In this document: in pieces, positions 7,603-53,287 of the stretch
Layout: every line of letters starts with the position of its first letter
Numbering within the stretch: the first letter of the stretch is position 1
Origin: an uncultured delta proteobacterium
GTDB lineage: Bacteria; Myxococcota_A; Polyangia; Polyangiales; Polyangiaceae
Assembly: GCA_963716725.1 (NCBI GenBank)
Contig: CAVQUB010000013.1
Span: 224,001 to 288,000 of the forward strand
Reading direction: 5' to 3'
Length of the DNA: 64,000 nucleotides
Translations under genes and position numbers: made by a program
Notes under the pieces: model-generated
What the model saw: the letters and a program-made list of their open reading frames with translations, nothing else
What the model was told of the DNA's origin: nothing
Database searches by the model: none

Positions 7603-7863
7603 TCACTTACCGAGCTTCGCGACCTCGCGCTCGAGCTCCAGCGCGGTCGACAAAACGCGCAGGTTCGCCACGGCCGCGTATTTATGCAGGCGCATGTCGA
7701 CGGTGGCGCCGATCTTGTCGGGCGCGCTCCCACTGCTGACGGTCACGCGGTCACCCAAGAGGTCAGTGGGCTCGGCGATGGTCTTCGCAGATTGCTCGAA
7801 CCGCGCCAGGCTCGAGCCCAGTCCCGCCAGCGCGGTATTCGTCAAAGCATTGATTCCGGCCAC
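7603..7863 (-). CDS. Small flagellar axial-like protein (rod/hook N- and C-terminal helices only)
   Basis: N-terminal ALTNTALAGLGSSLARFEQSAKTIA and C-terminal DKIGATVDMRLHKYAAVANLRVLSTALELEREVAKL align by eye with the termini of FlgC in this window. Confidence 0.6.
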   Translation of the reverse strand: MAGINALTNTALAGLGSSLARFEQSAKTIAEPTDLLGDRVTVSSGSAPDKIGATVDMRLHKYAAVANLRVLSTALELEREVAKLGK

Positions 7864-7870
7864 GCCCCCC

Positions 7871-7898
7871 TGAACGGAGGGCTGCCCGGGGACTTGAG
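7871..7898 (-). promoter_or_regulatory. Putative sigma28 promoter (small axial-like gene)
   Basis: CTCAAG-N14-TCCGTTCA; the GTG start follows after a 7 nt spacer. Confidence 0.7.
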
Positions 7899-7900
7899 CG

Positions 7901-8406
7901 TCACTCTGCGCTCATCTGGCGAGCCGCCTCGTCCTCGGTCAGAGGTGGCGCGGGCTCCGTCTCCGACTCGCGCTCGCGCGGCTGAAAATAGAGTTCACGT
8001 GTCGAGAACCGGGTGCCGTCGAGCAGTACCTGCGCGCCCTTCTTCGCCGCGGTGTCGACCAAGATGGGGGCCATCAGGTTCACTGTGGCAAGCCCCGAAG
8101 GCGGCGCCGAGAGCACGGCCATCACAGCGATGTCGTCGGGCTCGTCGCTCAGCCCGTGCGCGGCGGCGATCTCTGGATGGGCACGTCAGGGTACGCGCCG
8201 CGGAAACCATGGGCCGACACCACGGGGAAAGCGAGGGCTGAAGTGGTGGTGGACTGAAGCCACGCGACGGCGTCCGAGCGCCCGTGGCCGACTAAGATGA
8301 AGCTCTGCTCCGTCGGAAATCCGATGATCCCCGAAGCGAACTCGATGGTGTCCGCTGCACTGGTTTCGATGGTGCCGAATCGATCGCTCCGAACGGTAAT
8401 GGTCAT
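7901..8406 (-). CDS. fliW: Flagellar assembly factor FliW (frameshift near 8173)
   Basis: RFGTIE...IEFASGIIGFP...WLQS...LAFPVV in one frame, then TVNLMAPILVD...KGAQVLL in another. Adding one base (cagag to caggag) restores a 168 aa ORF. Confidence 0.85.
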
Positions 8407-8450
8407 TTCGCGTGCTCCTTCCGTACGCTTAGCAACGTCGATGCCAGACC

Positions 8451-9185
8451 TCAGGGGGGGGCCGGGAGGCTCAGTACGAAAGTGGCGCCTTGGCCCGGGC
8501 CGCTCACGACCGAAAGGCCGCCTCCATGGGCGTCGGCCACCCGCTGGCAGAATGCGAGTCCAACGCCCGTGCCCTCGGAATCGTTGGCGACGTAAAGGTC
8601 GAATATTTTCGCCTGATCCTCCGAGCTGATCCCTGGCCCCTCGTCGGCCACACTGATGGCGATCCGGTCGGCGTGGCGGCTGTAGGACAGGACAATCGTC
8701 GCGCCTCGGGCCGATACCTTGAGCGCGTTGTCCAAGAGATTGTCCAACACTCGCTGGACGAGCCCCTGGTCGACGTCGCACCAAACAGGGTCATCGCCTT
8801 CGACGACCAGTCTGACACCCGAGACGTCAGCGAGATGGCGGAGTCGGTTCTGCGCTGCCCGAGCCAGCGTACCGATCTCGACCCTGCCCAGCTCCGCGGC
8901 CAGATTGCTCGACCCCGAGCGAGCCGACGCCAGCGCCTCCAGCAAAATACGCGAGAGTTGCCCGACCATTTGGCCCATTTCTGCGACCGCCGCGCCGACC
9001 TCGGTGTGGGTGCGCGTCGCATGCGCGACCTGGAGCCAATCGAGCCCGGCCTGGAGCGCACACGCCATGTTCTTGGCGTCGTGGAGCGCGAAGGCCATCT
9101 GCGTGACGAGCTCTTCCCGCTCGTCCACACGGAACACACCGCTGGCGGATTCGCCGTGGTTTATGCTGAACGCCGAGGAGGTCAC
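8451..9185 (-). CDS. Cytoplasmic histidine kinase with no sensor domain
   Basis: H-box LHDAKN, N-box DNLLDNALK, DEGPGI, GTGVGLAF; only about 30 aa precede the H-box. Confidence 0.85.
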   Translation of the reverse strand: MTSSAFSINHGESASGVFRVDEREELVTQMAFALHDAKNMACALQAGLDWLQVAHATRTHTEVGAAVAEMGQMVGQLSRILLEALASARSGSSNLAAELGRVEIGTLARAAQNRLRHLADVSGVRLVVEGDDPVWCDVDQGLVQRVLDNLLDNALKVSARGATIVLSYSRHADRIAISVADEGPGISSEDQAKIFDLYVANDSEGTGVGLAFCQRVADAHGGGLSVVSGPGQGATFVLSLPAPP

Positions 9186-9202
9186 TTCGAGCCCGTCCGC
9201 AC

Positions 9203-9230: not shown

Positions 9231-9953
9231 TCAGCCAGCGCCGCGGCGCCCGAGCCCCAGCTGCCCTCGCACCAAGTGGATGGCTTCGCTGTGGAGCTGG
9301 CAGACGCGGGACTCGGTGACGCCGAGCACCTCTCCGATTTCGCGCAGCGTGCAGCTCTCCTGATAGTACAGCCCAAGCACCATCCGGAGGCGCTCGGGAA
9401 GCCCCTCGATGGCCTGCGCTACGAACTCTGCGAGTTCCTGGTGAGCCGCCTGAGCCTCCGGGGACGGGTCGAGCGAGCGCTCGTCTCCGGACAGCTCCAG
9501 TCGCGCGTGACCCGAGCGAGAAATGTCCGCCAGAAGCCCGTGATAGGCCTCGACCTCGAGCCCGAGCTCGGCGGCCATCTCCTCCTCATTGGGATATCGG
9601 CCGAGCCGTCCCACGAGCTCGCGGGCGGCGTCGCTGATGCGACGCGACGCTTGGCGCAGCTTGCGTGACAGGGGATCCAGGTCACGCAGGAAGTCCAGTA
9701 TCGCCCCTCGCACTCGATGGGAAGCGTAGGCTTCGAACTCGTGTTCCGGCATCCCGTCACGACGACGCCGGAGTGCCTCCACCAAGCCGAGCCAGCCCGC
9801 GGAGACGATGTCGTCGATGGCGACGTGCGCGGGCAGGTTTCGCACGGTGCGCATCGCGATCCGCCTGACCAGAGGCGAGTAGCGACGAACGGTTTCGTCC
9901 CCATGCGCATCCGGCGTGGATCTGGTTTCGGGCTCGGCGACGCTCACGATCAT
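9231..9953 (-). CDS. fliA: RNA polymerase sigma factor FliA (sigma28)
   Basis: DDIVSAGWLGLVEA, FEAYASHRVRGAILDFLRDLD, LYYQESCTLREIGEVLGVTESRVCQLH; ATG overlaps the flhF stop. Confidence 0.95.
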   Translation of the reverse strand: MIVSVAEPETRSTPDAHGDETVRRYSPLVRRIAMRTVRNLPAHVAIDDIVSAGWLGLVEALRRRRDGMPEHEFEAYASHRVRGAILDFLRDLDPLSRKLRQASRRISDAARELVGRLGRYPNEEEMAAELGLEVEAYHGLLADISRSGHARLELSGDERSLDPSPEAQAAHQELAEFVAQAIEGLPERLRMVLGLYYQESCTLREIGEVLGVTESRVCQLHSEAIHLVRGQLGLGRRGAG

Positions 9954-11134
9954 CCCAAGTTGCTGCCGTTCACGAGCGCTTCGATGCTCGCGGGGTGGAG
10001 GTCTTCCGGCACGCGAGGGCCGTCGCAGAAGTAGGTGAGCGGCAAGGCGTTGGGGATGGCCGCGTGCAGCACGCCACCCGCCTGGCAGGTCTCGTCGAGC
10101 TTGGTGATCACGAGACCGCTCGGCCGAGCGTCGCGGTAGAGCGTGCACATGCGCTCGGAGTCTCGGCCCCGCAGCCACGCGGGCACCACCAGGAGCGTGT
10201 GCAGGTTGCGCCCCTCCAGGGCGTCCAGGCAGCTCGCGACCGGCCAGTCTTCTGGCGGCGAACTCGCCGTCTTGCCGGTAGTGTCGATCAAGACGATGTC
10301 GGTGCTGCGCTCGGAGATCCGTTGCAGCAGCTCTTCTGCGCCGGTGACAGCGTGAAACTGCACTCCCATCAGCGACGCATAGCGTTGCCACTGCTCCACG
10401 GCGCCCACGCGGTACGAATCGAGGGAGAACACGCTGACAGAACGACCGAAATCCAGGCGTGCGCGCGCCGCGAGCTTCGCCAGCGTGGTGGTCTTGCCTA
10501 CACCGGTGTTGCCCACGGCCACGATGACTTGCTGCCCGGGACTCTGCAGCGGGTCCGGCCCGAGCGTGACGCTCTCCGCGATACGCTGCACCAACCACGC
10601 GTTCAGAGCCTCGGTACCGCGCCGCGCGACGCGACCGGCGCCGGTCGCCAGTCGACGCGCCAGAGCGCCTTCGATCCCGAAGGCCACCAGCAGCGAGAGA
10701 ACGCGTTCACGCGGAGGACGGCTCTCGTGCAGGTCGTCGAGCATGGCACGGAGCGCAACCAGCTCGCGCTCGAGCTCGGCCGGGTCCAATCCCAGGGTGC
10801 GGGTGCGGCTGCCCTTCCCGGGGGGCGCGGCTCCGTACCCCTCCGGGTACTTTCCAGGATCGTCCCGACGCCCGCTGGGATCCGCCGACGGCGTGCGCGG
10901 GCCCGAGTGGCGAGGGGGCGACACCACGGTCGGCCTCTGGTTGGCGTCGAAGCTCCAGCTATGCCTGCCCGCAGGCGCGGTCGCCATGACTTCGACCCAG
11001 GAGTGGCCGAGCGCCCCGCTGCGCCCATTGGTGACGTGTCGGGTCGATTGGATGAGTGCGTCGGGTCCGAGCGAGGCTCGCACTCGAGACAGCGCTTCTC
11101 TTACGTCGGCGCCACGAAAGCTCTGGTACTGCAC
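9950..11134 (-). CDS. flhF: Flagellar SRP-like GTPase FlhF
   Basis: EALSRVRASLGPDALI, GNTGVGKTTTLAKLAA, DSYRVGAVEQ, DTTG, TKLDET, GPRVPEDL. Confidence 0.93.
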   Translation of the reverse strand: MQYQSFRGADVREALSRVRASLGPDALIQSTRHVTNGRSGALGHSWVEVMATAPAGRHSWSFDANQRPTVVSPPRHSGPRTPSADPSGRRDDPGKYPEGYGAAPPGKGSRTRTLGLDPAELERELVALRAMLDDLHESRPPRERVLSLLVAFGIEGALARRLATGAGRVARRGTEALNAWLVQRIAESVTLGPDPLQSPGQQVIVAVGNTGVGKTTTLAKLAARARLDFGRSVSVFSLDSYRVGAVEQWQRYASLMGVQFHAVTGAEELLQRISERSTDIVLIDTTGKTASSPPEDWPVASCLDALEGRNLHTLLVVPAWLRGRDSERMCTLYRDARPSGLVITKLDETCQAGGVLHAAIPNALPLTYFCDGPRVPEDLHPASIEALVNGSNLG

Positions 11135-11158: not shown

Positions 11159-13243
11159 TCATAGGTTGACGATCTCGAAAGGTTTCAGCGTCGCGTCCGC
11201 CTCGACCTCGCGGAACGAGAGGACCGACAGGGTGGGGCAACGGCGCTCTGCGAATGCCCTCAGGTAGCGCCTGACGTCAGGGCTCGTGACCACGCAGGCG
11301 GGCTTGCCGGCGGCGAGCATGCGCTGGGTCGCTTCCTCGAGCGCGATCCCGAGCTGCCGCGCCTGTTCTGGGTCGAGCGCGCCGCCGGTCCCCGCGGCGA
11401 TCTCTCGGAGCGAGCGCCGGAAGATGTCTTCGACCTTGCTGTCGAGCACCAGCGTATGAAGCGTCCGCTCGGCGTCGATGAAAGCCGCGGTGATCTGGCG
11501 CGAGAGGCGCTGCCGGGTCAGCTCGGTGAGCTGCTCGGTGTCTCGAGTCCCCGGCGCCAGGTCGTGCAGAGCCTCGAGCACGCTGCGGAGGTCCCGAATC
11601 GAGATCCCCTCCTTCAGCAGATTTCGCATGATCTTCTGCACCTCCCCGAACGTGAGCAAATTCGGGACCAGGTCTTCGACCAGCTTCGGCGTGGTCTTCG
11701 AGAAGACTTCGAACAGGTGCGTGAGCTCGGCACGGCCGAGAATGTCGTGGGCGTGTCGGCGGGCTGTCTCTGCGAAGTGGGTTGCGATGACGGTGGTTGG
11801 GTCGACGACGGTCCAGCCCAACGCCTCGGCAAGCTCGCGGTCTCGCGCGGCGACCCAGCGGGCGGGTGTTCCGAACGCCGGGTCGGTGGTGGGCTCACCT
11901 TCCACCTCGCCTGCCGTTCCGCTCGGATCGATCGCGAGCAACCGGCCGGTCCGAATCGTGCCGGTGGCTACGCCGGTCCCGAGCAGCATGATGCGGTATC
12001 CACCCGGAGGCAACTCGAGGTTGTCGCGAATGTGAACGGGGGGAATGACAATCCCGAGTTCGAGGGCTTGCTGCTTGCGCAGCGCCGAGATCCGTTCGAC
12101 CAAGGTGCCGCCCATCTTGGGATCCACGGTGGGCACCAGCTCGTAGCCCACCTCGAGGGCGAGGACGTCCAAGGGCAGGGCCGCGTCGATGTCGTCGCCC
12201 GGAGACGGCCTGGGCCCCGAAGCACCGCCCTCGCCAGTGTGACCCGGTTCGACCTTGGGGGCGGCCTTCGCCTTGTCTCGGCGCCGCATGCTCCAGTAGA
12301 GCCCGCCGGCAAGGAGCAGAAAGGGGAGCGCGGGCATGCCCGGCAAAAGGGCAAATACCGCCAGGATCCCAGCGGTCGCGCCGACGGCACGCCGGCTACC
12401 AAAGAGCTGCGCCTGAACGATACGCCCCAGTTGATCGCCGGTCGGCGAGCGCGTCACGACGACGCCCGCCGCGGTGGAGATGAGCAACGCTGGAACTTGA
12501 GAGACGAGGGCGTCGCCCACGCTGAGGATGCTGAAGGTCTCGGCGGCGTCTCCGACGGACATCCCGCCCGCCACGCCCAGCATCAGCCCGCCGATGAGGT
12601 TGACCGCGGTGATGAGGATGGCCGCGATGGCGTCGCCCTTCACGAACTTGCTTGCACCGTCCATCGCGCCGAAGAAGTCGGCTTCGCGCTCGATGTCTCT
12701 GCGCCGATCGCGAGCGACTTCCGGAGAGATGATGCCCGCGTTCATGTCGGCATCGACCGCCATCTGCTTGCCCGGCATGCCGTCGAGCGCGAATCGGGCG
12801 GCCACCTCGGCAACTCGCCCGGCGCCCTTCGTGATCACGATGAAATTGATGATCACCAGGATCACGAAGACGATCAGGCCCACGACGACGTTCCCGCCCA
12901 CGACCACGCGCCCGAAGGCCTCGACGACCTGGCCGGCGGCGCCATGGCCGTCCTTGCCGTTGAGCAGGATCAGCCGCGTCGTCGCGACGTTCAGGCTGAG
13001 GCGCAGCAAGGTGGCCACCAGCACGACCGCGGGAAAGGAGCTGAACTGGAGCGGGTGCTCCATGAACAGCCCGATCAGGAAGACGCCGATGGAAATGGCC
13101 AGGCTGATCGCCAGAAGCAAGTCCACCACCATGGGCGGCACCGGGACCACGAGCATCATGACGATGCCGACGATGGCGAGGGGCAGGACCAACTCGCTGG
13201 CCCCTCCCTGGCGGGGCTCTGTGGTCGTGGCAGCGGCGCTCAC
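11159..13243 (-). CDS. flhA: Flagellar export gate protein FlhA
   Basis: RVAEVAARFALDGMPGKQMAVDAD, FFGAMDGASKFVKGDAIA. Start moved from ATG 13267 (inside the sigma54 motif) to GTG 13243. Confidence 0.95.
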   Translation of the reverse strand: MSAAATTTEPRQGGASELVLPLAIVGIVMMLVVPVPPMVVDLLLAISLAISIGVFLIGLFMEHPLQFSSFPAVVLVATLLRLSLNVATTRLILLNGKDGHGAAGQVVEAFGRVVVGGNVVVGLIVFVILVIINFIVITKGAGRVAEVAARFALDGMPGKQMAVDADMNAGIISPEVARDRRRDIEREADFFGAMDGASKFVKGDAIAAILITAVNLIGGLMLGVAGGMSVGDAAETFSILSVGDALVSQVPALLISTAAGVVVTRSPTGDQLGRIVQAQLFGSRRAVGATAGILAVFALLPGMPALPFLLLAGGLYWSMRRRDKAKAAPKVEPGHTGEGGASGPRPSPGDDIDAALPLDVLALEVGYELVPTVDPKMGGTLVERISALRKQQALELGIVIPPVHIRDNLELPPGGYRIMLLGTGVATGTIRTGRLLAIDPSGTAGEVEGEPTTDPAFGTPARWVAARDRELAEALGWTVVDPTTVIATHFAETARRHAHDILGRAELTHLFEVFSKTTPKLVEDLVPNLLTFGEVQKIMRNLLKEGISIRDLRSVLEALHDLAPGTRDTEQLTELTRQRLSRQITAAFIDAERTLHTLVLDSKVEDIFRRSLREIAAGTGGALDPEQARQLGIALEEATQRMLAAGKPACVVTSPDVRRYLRAFAERRCPTLSVLSFREVEADATLKPFEIVNL

Positions 13244-13255
13244 GCCAACTTGCTT

Positions 13256-13271
13256 TGCGAGGGCCATGCCA
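13256..13271 (-). promoter_or_regulatory. Putative sigma54 promoter (flhA-flhF-fliA)
   Basis: TGGCATGGCCCTCGCA; GTG at predicted +3. Confidence 0.65.
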
Positions 13272-13348: not shown

Positions 13349-14410
13349 TCAGGCACGAATACCCCGGTTGCGCAGCCGGTAGACGAAGGCGAGCACCTCG
13401 GCGATGGCCGCGTACAGCTCCACGGGGACGGCTCGCCCAGCTTTGACGCGCTCGGCCAAGGTGCGCGCGAGTGGCTTGTTCTCCACGATGGGGATTCCGT
13501 GTTCTTTCGCGAGCGAACGGATGAACATCGCGACCTCGTCGTAGCCCTTGGCAGCGACCACCGGTGCCCCTTCTTCGGGTCGGTACCGGATCGCAACCGC
13601 GACGTGTGTCGGATTCGTGACGATCACGTCAGCGGATTTGACTTCCTTTCGAATACCGCGCCTGAGCATCTCTCGGGCTCGAGCCCGCTGGCGGGCCCTG
13701 ACTCGCGGGTCTCCCTCCTGGCCCTTGACCTCCTCCTTGATTTCCTCCCGAGACATGCGGAGGTCTCGCTCGTGTTTCCACCACGAATGGGCGTAGTCCA
13801 GCGCCGTCATCGTGGCCAAGGCCACCGTCGCCCACAGCGCCAATCGGGACACGACGTCTCCGAGCGCGCTCACGGAGCCGACGAGCGGAGTGCGGGTGAG
13901 CTTGACCAGCATCGGCAGCGCGCTCTCGATGACGAAGTACGCCACCACCACCACGACGGCGACCCTGCCGAGCGCGAGCGCGGTGTTCACTGCCGCGGTT
14001 TTCGGCGAAATCAGCTGTTGGAGCTTGGACAGTGGCTCGAGGCGGTCCCACTTGAACTCGAGTTTGGGGTTCCAGCCTGCTTCCACGAAGCCCGCGACCG
14101 TCGCGGCCACCAGCGCGACGAGCATGGCGGGCAGGGTGACCCACATGAGGGTGCGTGCGGCAAACGCGCCGGCCCAAGCGGTTCCACCCTGGTGCAGATT
14201 GTGCGCCTGGCTGAGGCAATGCGTCGTGAGATCGCGGAGCCTCATCGCGATCTCGACCCCGGTGCTCGCCAGGAGAGCCAGAACGGCGGTCGATGCGGCC
14301 ATCGCGCCCAGGTCGCGGGCGCGGGGAAACTGCCCGTCCTCGCGCGCTCGTCGTCGTCGCTCTGGTGTCGCTTCCTCCGACTTCTCGTTGTCATCGTCGC
14401 GCTCGCTCAT
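13349..14410 (-). CDS. flhB: Flagellar export protein FlhB
   Basis: EKSEEATPERRRRAREDGQ, EGDPRVRARQR, NPTH autocleavage motif. Confidence 0.95.
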   Translation of the reverse strand: MSERDDDNEKSEEATPERRRRAREDGQFPRARDLGAMAASTAVLALLASTGVEIAMRLRDLTTHCLSQAHNLHQGGTAWAGAFAARTLMWVTLPAMLVALVAATVAGFVEAGWNPKLEFKWDRLEPLSKLQQLISPKTAAVNTALALGRVAVVVVVAYFVIESALPMLVKLTRTPLVGSVSALGDVVSRLALWATVALATMTALDYAHSWWKHERDLRMSREEIKEEVKGQEGDPRVRARQRARAREMLRRGIRKEVKSADVIVTNPTHVAVAIRYRPEEGAPVVAAKGYDEVAMFIRSLAKEHGIPIVENKPLARTLAERVKAGRAVPVELYAAIAEVLAFVYRLRNRGIRA

Positions 14411-15186
14411 GGCGGCCTCGGCGACAACGCCCCGACGACGGACTCGAGCCCCTCTCCCACGTGACTGAGCTCGGCAATCATGCGCATCGTGAGATCGGGC
14501 GAGACGATGATCAGGACCACCCAACCCACTCCGAGCGTCACCGCAAATCCGAGTGAGAAGATCTGGAGCGCGGGTGCGGCTCGCGAGATGAAAGCCAGGG
14601 CGATCTGCACCATGAACAGGATCGAAACGACGGGGATCGCGATGCGCACACCAGCGGACAGCGCCTCCGCGCTGAGACGCACCATGACCGGCGTGGCCAC
14701 GGCAATGCTCTCGCTGGCGCCCACGGGCAATACCCGGAAGCTCTCGATCAACGCCCCCAGCACCACCCGGTGCACGCCCACCAGCAGCGCCAAGAAGATG
14801 GCAAAATGCCTAAACAAAGAGGTGAGCACGGTTCCGCTGCCGGCGTGAGGGTCGAAGAGGTGGGCCGCGCCGAGTCCCATCATCGGAGCGATGGCTTCAG
14901 CCGCAATCTCTGCGATCGACACCGCCACCCGCACCACGAAGCCCATGGCCAAACCCACGCCGAGCTCCCACGCGATGCCGAGCGCGACAGGCAGCGGCTC
15001 GGCCCTCACGCTGCCCGCTCCGACACCATGCGCGACCACGGTCAATGCCAGCACCAGGCCCACCCGCACGCGGGCTGGCGCGGACTGCCACGACAGCGGC
15101 GCCACCACGATGAGTCCCGCAATGCGCGAGAGCTCCAGCAAATACGAGATGACTTCGGCTCTGAACAGCGCTTCGAGCGCGTTCAC
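14407..15186 (-). CDS. fliR: Flagellar export protein FliR
   Basis: Hydrophobic protein with SRAAPALQIFSLGF, located between fliQ and flhB; GTG overlaps the fliQ stop. Confidence 0.9.
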   Translation of the reverse strand: MNALEALFRAEVISYLLELSRIAGLIVVAPLSWQSAPARVRVGLVLALTVVAHGVGAGSVRAEPLPVALGIAWELGVGLAMGFVVRVAVSIAEIAAEAIAPMMGLGAAHLFDPHAGSGTVLTSLFRHFAIFLALLVGVHRVVLGALIESFRVLPVGASESIAVATPVMVRLSAEALSAGVRIAIPVVSILFMVQIALAFISRAAPALQIFSLGFAVTLGVGWVVLIIVSPDLTMRMIAELSHVGEGLESVVGALSPRPP

Positions 15187-15452
15187 CGCGTGACTTCCGT
15201 GATGGACGAAATCGTGCGCGTCGAATAGTCCACGAGCTGCCGCAGCGTCCAAGTCCCGAGCACCAAGAAGGTCGCCACGATGGCGATCAGCTTGGTCACG
15301 AAGCTGATGCTGGCTTCGTTCACTTGCGTCGCGGCCTGAAGCACGCCCACCACGAGGCCAACTACCAGGGTCACGGCCAGCACGGGGCCGACCACCAAGA
15401 ACGCAATAATGAGGGCATTCCTGAGCAGCTCGACGGCTCCGTCGGTGGTCAC
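15183..15452 (-). CDS. fliQ: Flagellar export protein FliQ
   Basis: VGLVVGVLQAATQVNEASISFVTKL. Confidence 0.95.
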   Translation of the reverse strand: MTTDGAVELLRNALIIAFLVVGPVLAVTLVVGLVVGVLQAATQVNEASISFVTKLIAIVATFLVLGTWTLRQLVDYSTRTISSITEVTR

Positions 15453-39966: not shown

Positions 39967-39978
39967 CAGCAAAAGCTC

Positions 39979-42739: not shown

Positions 42740-42741
42740 TG

Positions 42742-45691: not shown

Positions 45692-46504
45692 CTAGCGGGC
45701 CGAGCTTGAGGCCGGCGCTGTCGCAGGCCCGCCGTCCGGACGCTCCGGCTCCTCCGAGGTCGCCGCGATCAGAACCACATCCACCCGGCGATTCTGCGCC
45801 CGCCCCTCCGACGAGTCGTTGGCCGCGACCGGGCGGAACTCGCCGTAGCCCGCCGCCGCGAACCGCTCGGGCGCCATCTTACACGCCTCGACGAAGTAAC
45901 GAACGACCGAAGTCGACCGCCCCGCCGACAGCTCCCAGTTGGATTGGTACCGGATGTTCTTGATCGGCACGTTGTCGGTGTGCCCCTCCACGCGGAGCTC
46001 GAGTTCGCGGCCCTTGAGGGCGTCGGCGATGCCCGAAAGCGCGGCCTGGCCGTCGTCGTTCACTCGAGTATCTCCACTCTCGAAGAGCAGCTGCTCGGGA
46101 AGCCGCAGCACCAGCTCGTCCCGATACTCGATGACCTGCAGGTCTCGCAGCTCCGGCACGGACTTGAATTTCTCTCTCAGCTCTCGGCCCAGCGGGGACT
46201 CGTCGACGCGAACACGCGAGTTGTGTCCGAGCACCGCCTTGCCCACCGGCTTGACGCTCTGTCCCACCAGCGGCTGGATGCGCTTGTCCGCTGGCATGAA
46301 CCCCTTTCCTCCCTTGGCGTCGAAGACCTGCCACTCCAGGGCGTCGGTGAACGACTCGGTGAAGCGCCCGACCTGCTTGGTGTCCACCTGGGACACCGCG
46401 AACATGACCACGAAGAACGCGAAGAGCAGGGTGATGAAGTCTGCGTAGCTGATCAGCCAGCGCTCGTGATTGACGTGCTCCGGCGGCTTCTTTTTGCGAG
46501 CCAT
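45692..46504 (-). CDS. motB: Stator protein MotB
   Basis: ERWLISYADFITLLFAFFVVMFA, VEGHTD, SNWELSAGR, NRRV. Confidence 0.95.
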   Translation of the reverse strand: MARKKKPPEHVNHERWLISYADFITLLFAFFVVMFAVSQVDTKQVGRFTESFTDALEWQVFDAKGGKGFMPADKRIQPLVGQSVKPVGKAVLGHNSRVRVDESPLGRELREKFKSVPELRDLQVIEYRDELVLRLPEQLLFESGDTRVNDDGQAALSGIADALKGRELELRVEGHTDNVPIKNIRYQSNWELSAGRSTSVVRYFVEACKMAPERFAAAGYGEFRPVAANDSSEGRAQNRRVDVVLIAATSEEPERPDGGPATAPASSSAR

Positions 46505-46514
46505 GGCCGCCCGC

Positions 46515-47324
46515 TCAAGCCGCCACGCTCTTCGGCGCGGCCCCGGCGGGAGCGCCGTCTTTGCCCTTGGCGCTGGGGCCCTCGTGGGGCACGAGGCCTT
46601 CCAGGCGCTCGCGCAGCACCATTGGGTTCACTCCTTGCTGGATACCGAGTGCACCCTCCAACATCAGGGTCAGGGTCTGAACATGATCGCGGGTCCGGAT
46701 CTTCATCTTGCCGCCGCAAGGGAGCGCGATGATGTTCGCGATGGCAACGCCGTAGATGGTCGCGACGAAGGCCGTCGCGATGCCATGTCCGACCTTCTCG
46801 ATGTCCGACAGGTTCTGCATCACCTGGATCAGACCGAGCACGGCGCCGATGATGCCAACCGTCGGGGCGTAGCCGCCAATGGCTTCGAACACCTTCGCCA
46901 CGTCCTCGCCTTGTTCCTCGGCATGGTCAATGGTGGATTCCAGGGTCTGCGTCATCTGATTGCTGTCGGCGCCGTCGACCGCCAGCATCAGCGCTCGCGC
47001 CAAGAAGGGATCGGACGCGTTTGGTGCCACCGACTCGAGCGCCAGGATCCCGTCGCGACGCGCGGTGGTCGCGTAGCCCACGATCTCCTCGATCAGCTCC
47101 TTGGCTCGGCTCTTGGGAGGGTTGATCACGAGCTTGAAGCTCTTCATCGCCCGCACGAAGGTGCCCATGGGGAACTGAAGCATGGTCGCACCGATGGTCC
47201 CACCAGCGACGATGCCGAACGCGATGGGGTTGAGAACCTGCGACATCTTGCCGCCTTCGAGCACGTTTCCGCCGAAGATGGCCAGCAAGCCCAACGCCAG
47301 TCCAAATATTGAGGCCTTGTCCAT
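46515..47324 (-). CDS. motA: Stator protein MotA
   Basis: ARRDGILALE, GGYAPTVGIIGAVLGLI, AFVATIYG. Confidence 0.95.
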   Translation of the reverse strand: MDKASIFGLALGLLAIFGGNVLEGGKMSQVLNPIAFGIVAGGTIGATMLQFPMGTFVRAMKSFKLVINPPKSRAKELIEEIVGYATTARRDGILALESVAPNASDPFLARALMLAVDGADSNQMTQTLESTIDHAEEQGEDVAKVFEAIGGYAPTVGIIGAVLGLIQVMQNLSDIEKVGHGIATAFVATIYGVAIANIIALPCGGKMKIRTRDHVQTLTLMLEGALGIQQGVNPMVLRERLEGLVPHEGPSAKGKDGAPAGAAPKSVAA

Positions 47325-47325
47325 C

Positions 47326-47586
47326 TCACTCCTCGTCGTCTTTGCACTCGTCGAGCTGCTGGGTGACCTGTCTCGAAGGAGGGTGCGCGCTCCCCGGCCC
47401 TAGCGGTTGATGCACGGATCGACGGAAGTTCACGACCCTCGCCATCACCTCGTCGAGGGACTCCCGCACCATGATCCGATCCCCGTTCAAGAATTCCATA
47501 GTCGTATCCGGCGTCACCTCGATCCAGGTCACGAGGTCCGGGTTGATGGCGATCACGCCGCCATTGAGCCTTGTCAGTTGGATCAT
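47326..47586 (-). CDS. flbD: FlbD (SwrD/YlzI) family flagellar protein
   Basis: MIQLTRLNG...INPDLV..IEVTPDT...NGDRIMVRES. Confidence 0.9.
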   Translation of the reverse strand: MIQLTRLNGGVIAINPDLVTWIEVTPDTTMEFLNGDRIMVRESLDEVMARVVNFRRSVHQPLGPGSAHPPSRQVTQQLDECKDDEE

Positions 47587-48677
47587 GCTTCGGGTTTCCG
47601 GGTGAGCTCGGCCTCTACGACCTCGCAGATCGCGTGCCAGCTCAGAATGTGCAGCTCCTGGATGCGCGGCGTCGATGTCGACGGCGCGCGAAACCGGAGT
47701 TCGGCGACGTCGGCGACTCGACCGCCACTGGCGCCGGTGAACGCCACGGGGATCGCCCCGATCTCCCGGGCTGCCTCCAGTGCGCGCACGACGTTCTTGG
47801 ATTGTCCGCTGGTGCTGATGCCAACCACGACGTCACCCGGACGTCCGAGTCCACGCACCTGCCGCGCGAAGACCTCGTCGAAGCTCCAATCGTTGCCGAT
47901 GGCGGTCAAGATGGACGAATCGGTGGTGAGCGCGACGGCCGGCCACGGCTCGCGCTCACGCGAGAACCGTCCCACCAACTCGGCGGCCACGTGCTGGGCG
48001 TCCGCTGCGCTCCCGCCGTTGCCGCAGAACATCGCCTTTTTCCCGGTTGAGATAGCCCGAACCAGGACCCGCGCTATTTCGCACAGCGTCGGGGTCGCTT
48101 CTTCGAGCATGCGCTGGTGCGCTTCGAGGCTCTCGCCCAAGGCCGCAGCGATGCCCCGACTGCGCTCGATGAGGTCGGCGTCACGGCCGACGATGCGCAG
48201 GACAATCTCGACCGCCTCCGCCACGGCGCCCGAACCGCCAGAGCGCGTGAGAACGCGATCCGCTCGCTCTCTCGCCTGACGAGAGGCATCGGCGGGGGCC
48301 AATGCGAGCCCTACGCTCGCGAACGCGGCTGCATCGCGGTCGGCGTCCCCGACGAAACACACGGTGTCGAGTTCGGCGTGCATGTCCCGCGCGAGCTGGC
48401 GCAGCGCCGCAGCCTTGTCCTTGGCGCCGCGGATGACTCGCTCCGCGCCGGTTCGCTGCGCGATGACATCGACCAGCGGGCCCTCCTCGCCGGTCACCAG
48501 TGCGATCCGAAGCCCGGCCCGGCGGGCCGCCGTGAGCGCATCGAGATCGCGGAACGCGATTCCCTTGCTCTCTTCCCCACCCGGCCCCAGCTCGACGCGC
48601 CCGTCGGTGAGCACGCCATCCACGTCCAGCGCCAGCACTTCCAATACGGACTGGGAAATCATGGTTTTTCCAATCAA
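47583..48677 (-). CDS. KdsC-like HAD phosphatase fused to GmhA-type phosphoheptose isomerase
   Basis: N-terminal LDVDGVLTDG, VTG, FVGDADRD, GGSGAVAE. C-terminal CGNGGSAADAQH, TAIGND, ISTSG, RIQELH. Confidence 0.9.
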   Translation of the reverse strand: MIGKTMISQSVLEVLALDVDGVLTDGRVELGPGGEESKGIAFRDLDALTAARRAGLRIALVTGEEGPLVDVIAQRTGAERVIRGAKDKAAALRQLARDMHAELDTVCFVGDADRDAAAFASVGLALAPADASRQARERADRVLTRSGGSGAVAEAVEIVLRIVGRDADLIERSRGIAAALGESLEAHQRMLEEATPTLCEIARVLVRAISTGKKAMFCGNGGSAADAQHVAAELVGRFSREREPWPAVALTTDSSILTAIGNDWSFDEVFARQVRGLGRPGDVVVGISTSGQSKNVVRALEAAREIGAIPVAFTGASGGRVADVAELRFRAPSTSTPRIQELHILSWHAICEVVEAELTRKPEA

Positions 48678-49417
48678 GCCGGGCGCCGCAGTCGCGACAC
48701 AGGCGCCTGAGGCCTCCGCGAATTTGTCAGTGCACGCTCGAGCGACGGGATCTGATCGGGGTAATCCAAGTCGAGCACGCGTTCGAAGATGACGAAGGGG
48801 AGGATGAGCGCGCCGTTCATCGAGTCCTGCTCGAGCACCCGCGGTCGGAGCACGTCCACGTAGCCATTTCCGCGGTACACGGGCGGCAGCTGTTGGCGCG
48901 GCATGTTGTGGGCCTCCGGCAGGCCGGAGACCGCCAGAACTGGGCGTAGCCTGCCGCCGTCGATGCAGTACATCTTGTAGGGGGTGTGCTCGGCGAGCTC
49001 GACCGACCGTAGTGAGTCGGCCTCGGGGTGCTTGATCATCTCGTCGATACCCCTATCGACCACGGCAGCCTCACGCGCGGGCTGGGTCGGGCGCAGGTGA
49101 ACGACCAAGTCGGGTTGATAGCCCTCAGCCGCGAGCCAACCCAGCGCGTGGCGGAAGACCTGCAAATCGGTTGCCTCGTCGGTAGCGTGCTCGGCCGGTC
49201 GGCGAAACGGCACCTCTGCGCCGGCCTTGGTGGCAACGTCGGCGATCTCCGGATCGTCCGTCGAGACGATGGTGCGGGTGATCCGGCGCGACGCCAGTGC
49301 CGTCTCAATCGTGTGCACGATCAGCGCTTTGCCAGCGATCGGCAGCAGGTTCTTGCGGGGGATCCCCTTGGAGCCTCCGCGGGCGGGGATCAGCGCCAAT
49401 ACCTCGAGCGAGGTCAT
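48674..49417 (-). CDS. CMP-ulosonic acid synthetase (NeuA/PseF-like cytidylyltransferase)
   Basis: IPARGGSKGIPRKN, VSTDD, AEVPFRRP, LRPTQP, RQQLP. Confidence 0.92.
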   Translation of the reverse strand: MTSLEVLALIPARGGSKGIPRKNLLPIAGKALIVHTIETALASRRITRTIVSTDDPEIADVATKAGAEVPFRRPAEHATDEATDLQVFRHALGWLAAEGYQPDLVVHLRPTQPAREAAVVDRGIDEMIKHPEADSLRSVELAEHTPYKMYCIDGGRLRPVLAVSGLPEAHNMPRQQLPPVYRGNGYVDVLRPRVLEQDSMNGALILPFVIFERVLDLDYPDQIPSLERALTNSRRPQAPVSRLRRPA

Positions 49418-49422
49418 CTTCC

Positions 49423-50289
49423 TCACGCCACTCGCCGCAGCTTGTTCATGATCGGGACCTCGTCCGAGCTCACCGTCTTCACGCCGTCGCCGAGGGCTCG
49501 CTCGACGGCACGAATGTCTCGAACCAGCTTCATCAAGCCTTGGGGCTCGACGCTGGCGGCCTGGTCGCTGCCCCACATGGCGCGATCCAGGGTGATGTGG
49601 CGCTCGACCATGCAAGCGCCCATGGCCACGGCGGCGAGGGATGTCGCCAGGCCGACCTCGTGTCCGGAGTAGCCGACAGGCACCCCGTAGCGCTCGGCGA
49701 GTTTGGGGATCATCCGCAGATTCAGGTCTTCCAGCTTGGCGGGGTAGGCGCTGGTCGTGTGGAGCAGAACCAGGTTCTCGGTGCCGAGCTGTTCGACAGC
49801 GCGATCGACTTGCTCCGTGGTGCTCATCCCGGTGGACATGATCAGCGGCCGACCGGTTCGTCGATGGTGAGCGAGTAGCTTCTCGTCGGTGAGGCAGGCC
49901 GAAGCGATCTTGTAGGCGGGTGGATTGAACTGCTCGATGAAGTCGACGCTTCGCTCGTCCCAACACGACGCGAACCAGGTCATGCTCTTGTCACGGCAAT
50001 ACCGCTGCATTTCCCAGTACTGTCCGAGCCCGAACTCGAGGCCTCGTTTCAGATCGCCATTCGTCTTTCCGAAGGGACTCTCGCGGGGACGAGCCAGCTC
50101 TTCTTCGCCGTACACGATCTCGAGGGTTCGCTTCTGGAACTTGACAGCCTGGCAGCCAGCGATGGCAGCGACGTCGACCAGACGCCGCGCAATGTCGATG
50201 TCGCCGTTATGGTTGATGCCGATCTCGGCAATCACGTAGCAAGGGGACCCCTCACCGATGCGTGCTCCGTTGATGATGACCTCGGGCAT
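49423..50289 (-). CDS. NeuB-family ulosonic acid(-phosphate) synthase with no C-terminal SAF domain
   Basis: IAEIGINHNG, VKFQKR, KIASA, GYSGHE, ERHITLDR..WGSDQ..SVEP; 288 aa. Confidence 0.92.
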   Translation of the reverse strand: MPEVIINGARIGEGSPCYVIAEIGINHNGDIDIARRLVDVAAIAGCQAVKFQKRTLEIVYGEEELARPRESPFGKTNGDLKRGLEFGLGQYWEMQRYCRDKSMTWFASCWDERSVDFIEQFNPPAYKIASACLTDEKLLAHHRRTGRPLIMSTGMSTTEQVDRAVEQLGTENLVLLHTTSAYPAKLEDLNLRMIPKLAERYGVPVGYSGHEVGLATSLAAVAMGACMVERHITLDRAMWGSDQAASVEPQGLMKLVRDIRAVERALGDGVKTVSSDEVPIMNKLRRVA

Positions 50290-50316
50290 GAACTGATTCC
50301 TCCGAAGAAGGGCGTT

Positions 50317-50332
50317 TGCAACCGCCGTGCCG
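50317..50332 (-). promoter_or_regulatory. Sigma54 promoter (neuB to motAB-dgc operon)
   Basis: CGGCACGGCGGTTGCA; SD GGAGG downstream. Confidence 0.8.
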
Positions 50333-51115
50333 CTAGACGCGATCCGCTTCATCGCGACGGTCATTGCGATCCGACAGGATCCGGACCGCCGTTCGCCCCA
50401 CCTCGTCCGCCAGCGCCAATGCGCTGACAAAGGGAGTGTCCACCGGCGCAAGCTCGGTGCCGGAACGAGTCGGTGCAGCGAGCGCCCCCGGCAAACGGGT
50501 CGGGGCAACCCCGGGAGTTCCTCCAACAGCGTCGAATCCGGACTGCAGGGCGACTGCGGAGAGCTTGGCCACGGAGCGCGAATAGGCCCCGGCGTCGCCC
50601 GTGAAGTAGCCGCGGGACTTGAGGCCGCGGACAAACGCCGCTGGGTCTCCCTCCTTCGCCCCCTGAAGGGCCGCACCGTAGCGTCTCTCCAACAAGCCGA
50701 TGTAGTCGGCGGCACCTTCGTCCGCGCTTCGATATGCGCGGAAGCGATCGTGAATGACCCGTTCGCTCGCCCCGGAGCCCTCGCGCGTTCTCTGCACTAC
50801 GGAGAGCCCCGACGGACCGACGCCTTTGATCCCGCCGAAGTTGAAGTTGTACATGGATCCGCCACGCCCAGTTTCGTGCGCCCACTGTGCGACCAGTACC
50901 CCCATCGTCTCCCGGCTCGGTTGCTCGCCGAAGCGTGCGGTCCAGGCGCGTTCGAGCGCGGTTCGTGCCTCTTCACCCGACAGGGAGGTCCGGCGCACCG
51001 CGGCGGCACCGGCCCGTTCGAGTTCCAGGTCGAAGCCCGCCGCCGGTGGTGGCGGCCGCGGCACCGGCGCAGCGCGGGGCTCTGAGGCGACCACGGGGAC
51101 CACGCCGACGTTCAT
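50333..51115 (-). CDS. Stand-alone GH73-like peptidoglycan hydrolase (FlgJ muramidase-like)
   Basis: AQWAHETGRG, NFGGIKG, FRAYRS, RY, GYFTG..Y; no Sec signal peptide evident. Confidence 0.75.
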   Translation of the reverse strand: MNVGVVPVVASEPRAAPVPRPPPPAAGFDLELERAGAAAVRRTSLSGEEARTALERAWTARFGEQPSRETMGVLVAQWAHETGRGGSMYNFNFGGIKGVGPSGLSVVQRTREGSGASERVIHDRFRAYRSADEGAADYIGLLERRYGAALQGAKEGDPAAFVRGLKSRGYFTGDAGAYSRSVAKLSAVALQSGFDAVGGTPGVAPTRLPGALAAPTRSGTELAPVDTPFVSALALADEVGRTAVRILSDRNDRRDEADRV

Positions 51116-51127
51116 GGCGAAAGTATT

Positions 51128-51143
51128 GGCAAGAAGTGCGCCA
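51128..51143 (-). promoter_or_regulatory. Putative sigma54 promoter (GH73 gene)
   Basis: TGGCGCACTTCTTGCC; ATG at predicted +3. Confidence 0.7.
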
Positions 51144-51273
51144 CCGCGGCTGCGCCGCAGTGGCTACCAGTCGGCGCCGCTCTGCCAGATCAGTGACGCG
51201 GGGGCCGTCAATTCCGCGGGCACTTCGGCTCCGGTCCTCGTGTCCGGAGATTCGCTCCCGGCCAAACGCGACC

Positions 51274-51289
51274 TGGCGTAAGCTTTGCT
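51274..51289 (+). promoter_or_regulatory. Putative sigma54 promoter (REC-HDOD and flgF)
   Basis: TGGCGTAAGCTTTGCT; ATG at predicted +4. Confidence 0.7.
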
Positions 51290-51302
51290 CGGTGGGGGCA
51301 TC

Positions 51303-52550
51303 ATGAGTGAAGCAATCGGGCGGGACGGACCCATTCAGGTCCTCCTGGTCGACGACGACCCACTTGTCCTCAAGAGCGTCGCGCGACTGCTCGGCAGCGT
51401 CGAGCCCAACTGGACCGTCGCCACAGCGGGCTCGGGGGAGGAGGCCATTGGGATCCTCGAGAAACAGCCCATAGATTTGGTCCTGTCGGATCTCAATCTG
51501 GGCGCAACGAACATGAGCGGCGCTGAGCTTCTCTCGTACGTACAGGAGCGCCACCCGGACGTCGTGCGGATCCTCCTGACGGGCCAAGCAACGCCGGAGA
51601 TGGCTCATCGTTCCCTGCCCGCGGCCCACTCGCTGCTACAGAAGCCCTTCGAGCGCCTGGAGCTCCACGCGAAGCTGCGACGGGCCGCCGAGCTGCGCGA
51701 GCTGCTGACGAACACCCGCATCCGGAGCCTGATCGGGTCGAGCAATCGGCTCCCCTCGCCCCCAAAGGTCTTCCACGAGGTGGCCGTGGCCCTGGCCGGA
51801 CGCCGCGCTGGAATGGAAGACGTCGCCTGCCTGATCGAAAGGGACGTCGCGCTCTCCGCGCAACTGATCCGCCTCGTGTCGTCCGCCTTCTTCGGTCTGC
51901 CACCGCGCGTGCGGAGCGTGCGCGGGGCCATCGCGTACTTGGGATTCAACACGGTCAAGACCCTCGTGCTCAGCGCGTCCATCGTCGAGCAATATCGAAC
52001 GACTCGGCCCGTCCGCGGTTTCGACCTCGACGGACTGCAAGCGCACGCGGTGGCCAGCGCCCATATCGCGCGCCAGGTGGTGGGGGAACCGGGCCTGACC
52101 GAGTCGGCCTTCAGCGCCGCGATGCTGCAGAACGTCGGCCAACTCCTGCTGGCGTCCCGGGCACCGGACGAATACTCCGAAGTGTTGATCCGCCAGCGCG
52201 AGGGCGCGCCGCCGGAGCAGGGCGAGGCCGACGTGTTCGGCGTCGCTCATCCGCAGATAGGCGCCTACCTGCTGGGCATATGGGGCCTGCCCAGCAGCTT
52301 GATCCGCGGGGTCCTCCACCATCACGAGGTTCAGCGCAGCGTGTCCTCCCGCATGGACGTGGCCCTAGCGGTGAACATCGCCGCGAAGCTGGCGAGCTCG
52401 CCGGACGCGCCGGCTCTGGACGACCCGGGAGATGACCCCTTCGTCATCGACCTCGCCCATTTGCGCGAACTGGGAGTGGCCCAGCTCTTGCCTGAGTGGC
52501 GTGAGACTGCCAGGCGCATGCTGGAGTCTAGCGGAGGAAATGATCGATGA
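51303..52550 (+). CDS. REC-HDOD response regulator
   Basis: LLVDDD, VLSDL, LLTG, QKP; then LPSPP, DVALSAQLIRLVSSAFF, WGLP, HHH. The HD motif is replaced by QN. Confidence 0.88.
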   Translation: MSEAIGRDGPIQVLLVDDDPLVLKSVARLLGSVEPNWTVATAGSGEEAIGILEKQPIDLVLSDLNLGATNMSGAELLSYVQERHPDVVRILLTGQATPEMAHRSLPAAHSLLQKPFERLELHAKLRRAAELRELLTNTRIRSLIGSSNRLPSPPKVFHEVAVALAGRRAGMEDVACLIERDVALSAQLIRLVSSAFFGLPPRVRSVRGAIAYLGFNTVKTLVLSASIVEQYRTTRPVRGFDLDGLQAHAVASAHIARQVVGEPGLTESAFSAAMLQNVGQLLLASRAPDEYSEVLIRQREGAPPEQGEADVFGVAHPQIGAYLLGIWGLPSSLIRGVLHHHEVQRSVSSRMDVALAVNIAAKLASSPDAPALDDPGDDPFVIDLAHLRELGVAQLLPEWRETARRMLESSGGNDR

Positions 52551-53287
52551 GCACCGGGATCTGGTCGGCGGCGTCCGGGGCGGTCGCCCAGGGGTTCTCG
52601 CTGGATGTCGCGGCGAACAACATCGCGAACGCGACGACCCCGGGCTTCCGATCCGACAAGGCGGTTTTTCGACAGGAACTCGCAAAGGCAGTGCAACGTG
52701 GAGAGACGCCGTCGCTTCGCTACGCGTTGGTTCGCAATGCAGTCGTGGACTTTCGAGCGGGAGACTTGACCCCCACAGGACGGCCGCTCGACGTCGCGCT
52801 GAGGACCGACGACACCTTCTTCGTGGTGAGGACCCGCGATGGGGAGCGATACACTCGCGCAGGCGGCGTGCAGATCTCGAGCGACGGATCGCTGACCATG
52901 GCCGACGGCACGCCCTACCTGGGGCCCGACCGGAAGATCATGAAGGCGCCGATGGAAGCTGGGACGGTCGCGTTCTCCAAAGACGGACGCCTCATCGTGG
53001 ATGGCGTGGAAGGCACACAGAAGCTTCTTGTCGTGTCCTTCAAGACCCCGGCGGCGCTGGTCCGCGACGGCAACGTCATGTTCCGCGCACCCCCGGCTGC
53101 GGGTCGCCCCGTCGAAGCGCCCGCGGACCTCGAGATTGGAGCGCTCGAGGGCTCCAATGCCTCTGCAGTCGGCGGCATGACCTCTATCGTCACGGCGAGT
53201 CGACAGTTCGAAATGCTGACCCGAGTGATCGAGGCGTTTTCGACCATCGATCGCAAGGCCGCCACGGACGTCATGGCGAAACGCTGA
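52547..53287 (+). CDS. flgF: Rod protein FlgF
   Basis: AANNIANATTPGFR, TGRPLDVAL, YTRAG, LEGSNAS, RQFEM; 246 aa, lacks the FlgG-specific insert. Confidence 0.85.
   Translation: MSTGIWSAASGAVAQGFSLDVAANNIANATTPGFRSDKAVFRQELAKAVQRGETPSLRYALVRNAVVDFRAGDLTPTGRPLDVALRTDDTFFVVRTRDGERYTRAGGVQISSDGSLTMADGTPYLGPDRKIMKAPMEAGTVAFSKDGRLIVDGVEGTQKLLVVSFKTPAALVRDGNVMFRAPPAAGRPVEAPADLEIGALEGSNASAVGGMTSIVTASRQFEMLTRVIEAFSTIDRKAATDVMAKR

Follow-up and report, generated by a model that had tools for sequence, protein, structure and literature searches.

Can a myxobacterial lineage swim by means of a flagellum? Myxobacteria are the textbook case of gliders lacking flagella, and the Agl proteins of their gliding motor are homologues of flagellar stator proteins. 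The question is raised by a flagellar gene cluster in a stretch of 64,000 nucleotides (positions 224,001 to 288,000 of contig CAVQUB010000013.1, assembly GCA_963716725.1; hereafter the window) from an uncultured bacterium assigned by GTDB to the Polyangiaceae. About 60 flagellar genes, arranged in co-oriented blocks, were detected at ~7.6-53.9 kb by Pfam and NCBIfam scans. We conclude with good confidence that the host, an uncultured species of the Polyangiaceae, carries here its single, complete flagellar regulon, which descended vertically at least since the ancestor of the family and order and was kept functional by selection. Judged from this gene set, the organism most likely swims, at least at some life stage, in wet habitats. 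The picture of myxobacteria without flagella stems from cultured soil isolates, and the locus thus described bears on the movement and hunting of predatory Myxococcota in water-saturated habitats such as wastewater, biofilters and sediments.

Completeness of the gene set

Gene calling relied on a codon model that had been trained on the window itself, and 72 open reading frames (ORFs) were compared with Pfam and 40 with NCBIfam. The near-complete flagellar gene set in one block that an earlier note on this DNA had described was recovered with both collections as a contiguous run at ~7,603-53,287. It consists of five blocks, located on the minus strand at 7.6-27.7 kb, on the plus strand at 27.9-44.1 kb, on the minus strand at 44.2-51.1 kb, on the plus strand at 51.3-53.3 kb and on the minus strand at 53.3-53.7 kb.

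The export gate is encoded by flhA (11159..13267, minus strand; PF00771, E 2.5e-246), which is the single FHIPEP gene in the whole host assembly, and by flhB, fliR, fliQ, fliP and fliO, found by Pfam and NCBIfam at 13349..18582 on the minus strand together with fliN, a divergent fliM and fliL. All six gate proteins scored above the cut-offs (PF00771, PF01312, PF00813, PF01313, PF01311 and PF04347 for FlhA, FlhB, FliP, FliQ, FliR and FliO, respectively). The genes fliJ, fliI, fliH and fliG were identified by the same scans at 21347..24835 on the minus strand; FliH (PF02108) and FliI (PF00006 and PF18269) exceeded their cut-offs and FliJ fell slightly below (PF02050, 27.1 vs. 28.4; TIGR02473, 42 vs. 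50). FliF, FliG and FliN are clear Pfam matches, and in FliM (17162-18088, minus strand) only the C-terminal FliN-like domain was recognised (TIGR01397, 66.7 bits vs. a cut-off of 219.6), with 77-79% identity in congeners.

All axial parts were identified, namely FlgB, FlgC, FliE, FlgF, FlgG, FlgE, FlgD, FlgK, FlgL, flagellin and FliD. Both flgC and flgB (26828..27672, minus strand) scored above their cut-offs (TIGR01395 and TIGR01396). Pfam and NCBIfam also recognised flgE and flgD in the minus-strand segment 18703..21350, which ends with a FliK-like ORF (20760-21350) placed by position alone; it has no family match and is 56-59% identical in congeners. On the plus strand, flgF follows a response regulator-HDOD protein (51285..53287; Pfam and NCBIfam), and the segment 30940..34535 carries flgA, flgH, flgI, a rod-binding FlgJ-N-like ORF, flgM and flgN. 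The bushing of a diderm envelope is thereby represented by FlgH (PF02107), FlgI (PF02119) and FlgA (PF13144), and FlgM exceeded its NCBIfam cut-off. Two flagellins of 278 and 276 amino acids (aa), each with PF00669 and PF00700, are encoded at 39130..40913 on the plus strand. This pair comprises all full flagellins of the host genome; a third, weak Flagellin_N match is flgL. Downstream, Pfam identified fliD, fliS and a gene for an S-adenosylmethionine-methyltransferase-TPR protein (40987..44079, plus strand). The stator genes motB and motA lie with flbD at 45692..47586 on the minus strand (PF01618 and PF20560; PF13677 and PF00691; NF006583, 282 bits vs. a cut-off of 237). A non-flagellar type III secretion system (T3SS), either an injectisome or the 'Myxo' type, was considered as well and ruled out, since the flagellum-specific parts are all present.

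Reading frames and selection

In the window as assembled, several of these genes are broken. Compared with intact orthologues of congeners (G001, G005 and G004), single-base indels are present in fliW (~8170), fliF (~25217), fliE (~26638), flgG (~30562), flgL (~36163 and ~36477) and a kinase gene in the left flank (~1121). The gene fliW (7904..8418, minus strand) is split near 8170-8173 with PF02623 on both halves, and its orthologues in G001 and G005 are intact with 176-183 aa. On the same strand, fliF (24854..26498; Pfam) carries one surplus base at 25217, and fliE (26515..26825), found via the congener orthologues, lacks one base behind 26638. On the plus strand, flgG (30152..30935) has a surplus base at 30562, and flgL, following flgK at 34538..36794, has two at 36163 and 36477. 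The flanking gene (426-1767, minus strand) encodes a Ser/Thr protein kinase with a C-terminal PilZ domain and is split near 1121; in G001 and G005 it is intact as stop-to-stop frames of 461-464 aa.

Taken at face value, such breaks would mark a decaying relic in a lineage that is losing its flagellum as cultured myxobacteria did. The earlier note had likewise allowed that the frameshifts might be real. Public sequencing data contradict this. Twenty DNA runs from eight studies carry the stretch, and for four of them, each from a different study (X1, X5, X6 and X9), Logan contigs were aligned to positions 21001-41000 of the window. The contigs of X1, X5 and X6, which belong to three studies, all omit one base at 25217, 30562, 36163 and 36477 and also at the intergenic position 27869, and those of X5 and X6 insert a C behind 26638. 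Hence, three studies restore five of the six sites in this region, and two restore the sixth. Since X1 possibly derives from the source sample, independent support is provided by X5 and X6. X9 provided nearly no specific cover of 21001-41000; besides one 1.2-kb piece with 35 differences, only short pieces aligned on the conserved sigma-54 AAA+ domain. In the same assembly, the essential gene rpoB (G000:C3:13588-17665, outside the window) is far more broken than the flagellar genes, being cut into no fewer than eight pieces that are spread over four reading frames and contain TGA stops, and therefore indel errors are general in this assembly.

Because the public contigs restore the bases and rpoB itself is broken, the six indel sites at 21-41 kb are errors of the host assembly and not mutations, one of them on the evidence of two of the three runs. 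The indel error rate, very high locally as rpoB shows, probably also explains part of the completeness score of ~84%. The idea of decay retains some support: at 26638 X1, at a depth of 3.7, keeps the reading of the window, the fliW site lies outside the aligned region (as does the kinase site near 1121), FlgI is absent from three of the six congeners, and the syntenic interval of one of them (G002) contains no flagellar structural gene. As a practical lesson, frameshifts in long-contig metagenome-assembled genomes (MAGs) of this kind cannot be read as pseudogenes until reads have been checked.

Two X6 contigs (11.1 and 14.4 kb) span 21001-26652 and 30065-41000 with 88 and 221 differences, i.e., ~98% identity. 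Of the 40 strain differences listed out of 376, one is intergenic, whereas 33 of those in genes are synonymous and 6 non-synonymous. Purifying selection acts on the flagellar genes in wild strains. Between species, the window DNA is 75-78% identical to that of congeners, and the encoded proteins are conserved to 95-97% (FlgG), 93-94% (FlgE, FliI and FliP), 90-91% (FliG), 89-90% (FlhA) and 88-92% (flagellins). These values are on par with those of the flanking housekeeping proteins Lgt (92%), DapA (90%) and DapB (84%). Given the restored frames, the broken rpoB and flanking kinase genes, and this selection, we regard a decaying relic as very improbable.

A separate observation concerns sequencing depth. 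Over positions 27671-29004, corresponding to the gene of a sigma-54 activator, the contig depth of X6 and X9 rises 10- to 100-fold with many short joints. This jump is due to AAA+ activators of other organisms aligned at 90% likeness and is not a feature of the host.

Descent and spread of the cluster

A functional flagellum might still be a recent acquisition: a myxobacterial lineage without flagella could have received it by horizontal transfer, or a chimeric or mis-binned contig could give that appearance. The host assembly comprises 7.89 Mb in 35 contigs and is rated 84.5% complete and 3.9% contaminated. As a single marker for its placement, the intact GyrB (841 aa) was compared with named genomes, where 76 distinct loci were kept. 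Identities of 76-80% were found to MAGs titled 'Polyangiaceae bacterium' or, in one case, 'uncultured Myxococcales bacterium'; one match at 80% and one at 75% span just part of the protein. Sorangium follows with 67%, a MAG titled Nannocystis with 66%, Polyangium jinanense with 64% and a MAG titled Labilithrix with 61%, and other phyla reach at most 57%. The closest GyrB sequences thus come from Polyangiaceae-titled MAGs, and therefore the Polyangiales-like host that had been proposed is correct. FlhA was uninformative for taxonomy, as only generic FlhA clusters labelled Pseudomonadota were found in the ESM Atlas.

The claims of flank-like composition and missing mobile-element hallmarks also stood up. 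The GC content is even, with 64-70% in 2-kb steps over the flagellar block and its flanks; no tRNA was found in the window, and none of the 72 ORFs scanned with Pfam matched a transposase or integrase family. The flanks contain the myxobacterial-style proteins mentioned in the earlier note: the kinase-PilZ fusion is real, and lipoprotein-like ORFs, one Gly-rich (LamG, 61 Gly of 311) and others Cys-containing, are present. The whole window including the flanks is syntenic in two congeners, G001 and G005, which contradicts both a chimeric contig and a recent import.

For a view beyond the genus, the P-ring protein FlgI was followed. Its identity to the window protein falls with taxonomic rank: at the level of the genus it is 88%, of the family 54-67%, of the order 47-56%, of the class 42-48% and of the phylum 37-49%. 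FlgI and GyrB identities are correlated (Spearman 0.84, n=44, among the matches listed; 0.93 within the class, n=21), and no outlier lies above the trend. A FlgI tree was built from 110 rows, i.e., the window protein, 80 of the 165 positive Myxococcota (spread over family codes) and, as outgroups, 15 (of 30) loci from Pseudomonadota and 14 (of 18) from Acidobacteriota. In this tree, the window protein and that of a congener are joined with a support of 100, the pair lies within a family clade (100) that includes one row of a neighbouring family, and the order clade is supported by 99. With 45 family codes in the tree, the 44 label changes are the minimum, so that the tree follows the genus, family and order codes.

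Transfer would agree with the lack of FlgI in cultured relatives (Sorangium sp. So ce1099 and Polyangium jinanense SDU13) and with a patchy presence even inside the genus. Set against the shared cluster and flanks, the uniform GC content and the FlgI tree, however, this leaves a recent transfer or a mis-binned contig only a slim chance. A retained rather than imported flagellum, as the earlier note had suggested, is well supported within the family and order and plausible for the class. At the depth of the phylum, the tree of this single protein gives no clear branching order: an Acidobacteriota clade shares a polytomy with several clades of Myxococcota, and one FlgI from the latter phylum (L231; G486:C11:28426-29478; code f36; branch length 1.62) groups with two Acidobacteriota sequences at a support of 96, for which an inter-phylum transfer or a long-branch artefact are possible causes. 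The outgroup FlgI sequences (37-49%) are as similar to that of the window as those of distant Myxococcota, which would also be compatible with a transfer.

Within the genus, four of seven species including the host keep the cluster and three lack it. In FlgI-negative G002 (G002:C1:2940001-2975000; L107 and L108), the orthologues of the kinase-PilZ and PAS-kinase flanks are ~14 kb apart with two-component genes between them, and no flagellar structural gene was found in this interval. Presence or absence of the cluster is thus tied to local rearrangement. When the interval was searched for flagellar remnants, nothing beyond paralogue-level matches came up (a sigma factor with 42% identity to FliA, a sigma-54 activator with 38-52%), and remnants therefore give no proof of whether the cluster was lost or gained in this genus. 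The Lgt-to-RseP block of G002 was located on a separate contig.

How common such flagella are was at first assessed with FHIPEP. Of 24 genomes sampled from the host's GTDB family, 21 have such a gene, as do 14 of 16 further families of the order. Many relatives (G001-G040), with or without a flagellar FlhA, carry a second FHIPEP gene that matches in two pieces (1-405 and 455-656; E ~1e-150). This class, not found in the host assembly, is probably SctV of a non-flagellar T3SS. Since the FHIPEP count includes it, the flagellum-specific FlgI was used instead. In the family, FlgI was present in 142 of 300 sampled species (141 of 299 without G310, a positive row from an unpublished genome), in 98 of 199 high-quality genomes and in 45 of 89 genera; in the phylum, 165 of the 400 species sampled, 144 of the 339 high-quality genomes and 126 of the 254 genera were positive. 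At both ranks, the counts of high-quality genomes and genera include the own genome. Positive named genomes were two Polyangiaceae-titled MAGs and MAGs titled Labilithrix luteola, Sandaracinus sp. and Myxococcales bacterium. No FlgI turned up in the complete genome of Sorangium sp. So ce1099, in Polyangium jinanense SDU13 or in MAGs titled Polyangiaceae bacterium Zod_Metabat.1029, Nannocystis exedens (3.4 Mb) and Polyangium sp. With about half of the sampled family species and ~41% of the phylum positive, and flagellar genes of Myxococcota already published (PMC2330069; preprint 10.1101/2021.07.06.451402, both in their accessible parts), the rarity implied by the earlier note was overstated.

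A flagellum of this kind thus has precedents. In the accessible part of Thomas et al. 2008 (PMC2330069), a 55.7-kb flagellar cluster of Anaeromyxobacter dehalogenans 2CP-C is described, strain K swims, and a flagellated myxobacterial ancestor is proposed instead of transfer. Compared by this published description only, the block presented here (~46 kb) is likewise a single large, near-complete Myxococcota cluster, whereas its host is Polyangia/Polyangiaceae-like in class and family. It contains fliJ, flgN, flgA and a split FlgJ (the rod-binding ORF and a separate glucosaminidase), all of which that description reports missing in 2CP-C, lacks embedded chemotaxis genes, and has in addition Maf with a nonulosonic-acid island and the pair CsrA-FliW. 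Among novel Myxococcota MAGs of the Zodletone spring, the accessible preprint text names flagellar assembly as a trait (10.1101/2021.07.06.451402), and in the available part of a study of the Zhenbei seamount, flagellins rank among the top-expressed genes of 35 Myxococcota and Bdellovibrionota MAGs taken together (PMC11937823). These, too, are uncultured Myxococcota with flagellar assembly genes, from other lineages and habitats; cluster anatomy, prevalence and phylogeny are not given in the accessible parts of the two papers. A 2026 preprint (10.64898/2026.06.16.732483) calls Myxococcota a 'motile phylum' in the part available. No link between Polyangiaceae and flagella was found in a literature search that covered few subscription journals, nor is the connection made in the accessible parts of PMC6109693, PMC13055281, PMC11821767, PMC10576062, PMC11613949, PMC12397197 and 10.1101/2025.10.08.681201. 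New here are the read-based rescue of the frames, a promoter set with an unusual late -10 element, and a FlgI prevalence in step with taxonomy.

From these data, we lean, with confidence a little above even, towards a wider view. Far from being peculiar to Anaeromyxobacter, flagellar swimming would be an ancestral trait still present in nearly half of the Myxococcota including Polyangiaceae, to which the classical fruiting gliders that degrade cellulose belong. The state without flagella would be repeatedly derived and over-represented among cultured soil isolates, with loss ongoing within single genera. The lineage would also employ a distinctive late-promoter -10 element, CCGTTCA, and a sigma-54 master activator that lacks the receiver domain. 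The finding bears on whether the gliding motor and the myxobacterial non-flagellar T3SS arose beside the flagellum or after its loss, and on cultivation, for which liquid or semi-solid media come into consideration.

Regulation, use and accessory genes

Two promoter classes were examined. The sigma-54-type pattern TGGCAC-N5-TTGCA (up to 2 mismatches) occurs 25 times in the window vs. 13.1 +/- 4.0 expected, and none of 100 shuffles reached 25. Nine sites lie 15-50 nt upstream of operon starts, and all nine are conserved in G001 and G005. They precede flgG (30118-30133, a perfect match), csrA (36807-36822), maf (37174-37189), orf29179 (29149-29164), the activator gene (27876-27891), flgB (27684-27699), fliW, flbD (47624-47639) and neuB (50317-50332). 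For late genes, alignments revealed a conserved sigma-28-type variant, TMAAG-N15-YCGTTCA, before the second flagellin gene fliC2, flgM and a kinase gene. An exact search yielded five sites in the window vs. 0.03 expected, located before fliC2 (39980-40006), flgM (33793-33819), the kinase gene (9203-9229), orf7603 (7871-7897) and orf53271 (53822-53848); the whole 7.9-Mb genome contains 11 matches, five of them inside the cluster. The view that conserved promoters argue for function is borne out by these sites, kept in congeners upstream of operons, and by the purifying selection described above.

The corresponding regulators are encoded in the block. The sigma-54 enhancer-binding activator (27927..29024, plus strand; PF00158 and PF02954) has no receiver domain. 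On the minus strand, the sigma-28 gene fliA (9231..9953; NF005413, 205.7 bits vs. a cut-off of 201) and flhF for a GTPase of the signal recognition particle type (9950..11134; TIGR03499, 182 bits vs. a cut-off of 174) adjoin a gene for a histidine-kinase-like protein (HATPase_c; 8451..9185), which is the kinase gene with the late promoter. The FliW partner CsrA (PF02599) is encoded at 36834..37058 and a Maf/PseD-like flagellin modification protein with an MptE-like domain (PF01973, above cut-off) at 37205..39142, both on the plus strand.

With these parts, the system would work as follows. The export gate (FlhAB and FliOPQR) with FliHIJ would export rod, hook and filament subunits through the MS/C-ring (FliFGMN), the rod would cross the P ring (FlgI) and the L ring (FlgH) of the diderm envelope, and rotation would be powered by MotAB stators, with polar placement suggested by FlhF. 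The receiver-less activator is predicted to switch on early and middle operons via the approximately nine conserved TGGCAC-N5-TTGC promoters. FliA, once freed from FlgM, would drive the late genes (flagellin 2, flgM, the kinase and two small family-less ORFs) from the lineage-specific TMAAG-N15-YCGTTCA promoter. Translation of flagellin may be tuned by CsrA-FliW, and the flagellins are probably glycosylated by Maf together with a nonulosonic-acid pathway of the NeuB/PseF-like kind. Several HDOD, GGDEF and PilZ proteins, encoded within the cluster or next to it, suggest control of the motor by cyclic di-GMP (c-di-GMP).

This make-up is of a standard type. In Campylobacter and Helicobacter, a sigma-54 enhancer-binding protein activates rod and hook genes and FliA/FlgM control late genes, and FlhF, CsrA-FliW and Maf glycosylation occur there as well. 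The cluster resembles this arrangement in its sigma-54 activator and promoters, FliA/FlgM, FlhF, CsrA-FliW, and Maf beside flagellins with a NeuB/PseF-type pathway, whose membership is putative. It differs from it by an activator lacking the receiver domain, for which no FlgS-type partner was identified, and by a late-promoter -10 of CCGTTCA vs. the canonical GCCGATAA; L and P rings and plain short flagellins (~277 aa) are present as well.

Several points weigh against a complete and functioning regulon. The canonical sigma-28 consensus TAAAG-N14-GCCGATAA (up to 3 mismatches) is not enriched in the window (6 vs. 3.35 expected; 12 of 100 shuffles reached 6), and four of the five sites that the variant pattern matches in the window had served to define it, the orf7603 site being the exception. 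RpoN was not found in the 84%-complete host assembly, neither with PF04552 (Sigma54_DBD) nor by tblastn with the congener RpoN; it is present in six of six congeners, and a gap in the assembly most likely accounts for its absence. The block yielded neither FlhG nor FliT. Maf and the sugar-pathway proteins scored below curated cut-offs (NF050051, 73 vs. 670; TIGR03569, 254 vs. 400; TIGR03586, 212 vs. 340; TIGR03584, 114 vs. 206). No canonical CheY-binding peptide was seen at the FliM N-terminus, and motor switching may be controlled differently in this lineage. Finally, no flagellum, swimming or transcript was observed, and no RNA run carrying positions 30001-40000 turned up among public sequencing runs.

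The unusual FliM and the wealth of c-di-GMP and HDOD regulators could also be reconciled with an intact apparatus used for secretion, adhesion or surface sensing instead of swimming. Non-flagellar roles of such systems are documented in the accessible parts of PMC3459982, PMC7277350 and PMC7688988; partial flagellar T3SS sets serve such ends in Lysobacter enzymogenes, as do non-flagellar T3SSs in Myxococcus. The repurposed systems are partial, however, whereas here the filament, cap, hook, junction, L and P rings, stators and chaperones are all present and conserved, as is an island for flagellin glycosylation, and two CheA-type loci lie elsewhere in the host genome. Another use is accordingly considered unlikely, and swimming remains the preferred reading.

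Three family-less regions behind flagellar-type promoters are candidates for lineage-specific flagellar accessory proteins. At the left border, orf7603 (7603..7863, minus strand; 86 aa, no match in Pfam and NCBIfam) shares 63-69% aa identity with its counterparts in G001 and G005. Two plus-strand ORFs at 29179..30115, orf29179 and orf29705, have signal-peptide- or lipoprotein-like N-termini and no match in either collection; orf7603 and orf29179 are conserved in three congeners. The product of orf29705 is Asp/Ser-rich, Cys-containing and lipoprotein-like. At the right border, orf53271 (53271..53666, minus strand; no Pfam match) yielded no match (E<=1e-5) in the stretches compared, where ORFs of 80 aa or more were considered for G001 and G005 and of 50 aa or more for G004. 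It is the likely right edge of the regulon: the border probably lies nearer 53,850 than 53,287 because the sigma-28-type site at 53,822-53,848 precedes this ORF.

In and around the cluster, five HDOD and two GGDEF proteins as well as response regulators were counted, among them an HDOD-GGDEF diguanylate cyclase (44165..45658, minus strand; Pfam and NCBIfam). The sugar genes at 47583..51115 on the minus strand encode a KdsC-GmhA-like fusion, a PseF-like cytidylyltransferase and a NeuB/PseI-like synthase and are accompanied by the glucosaminidase gene. The fusion (47583-48677, minus strand) combines a KdsC-type HAD phosphatase with a GmhA-type sugar isomerase (SIS domain), which is unusual for a nonulosonic-acid pathway.

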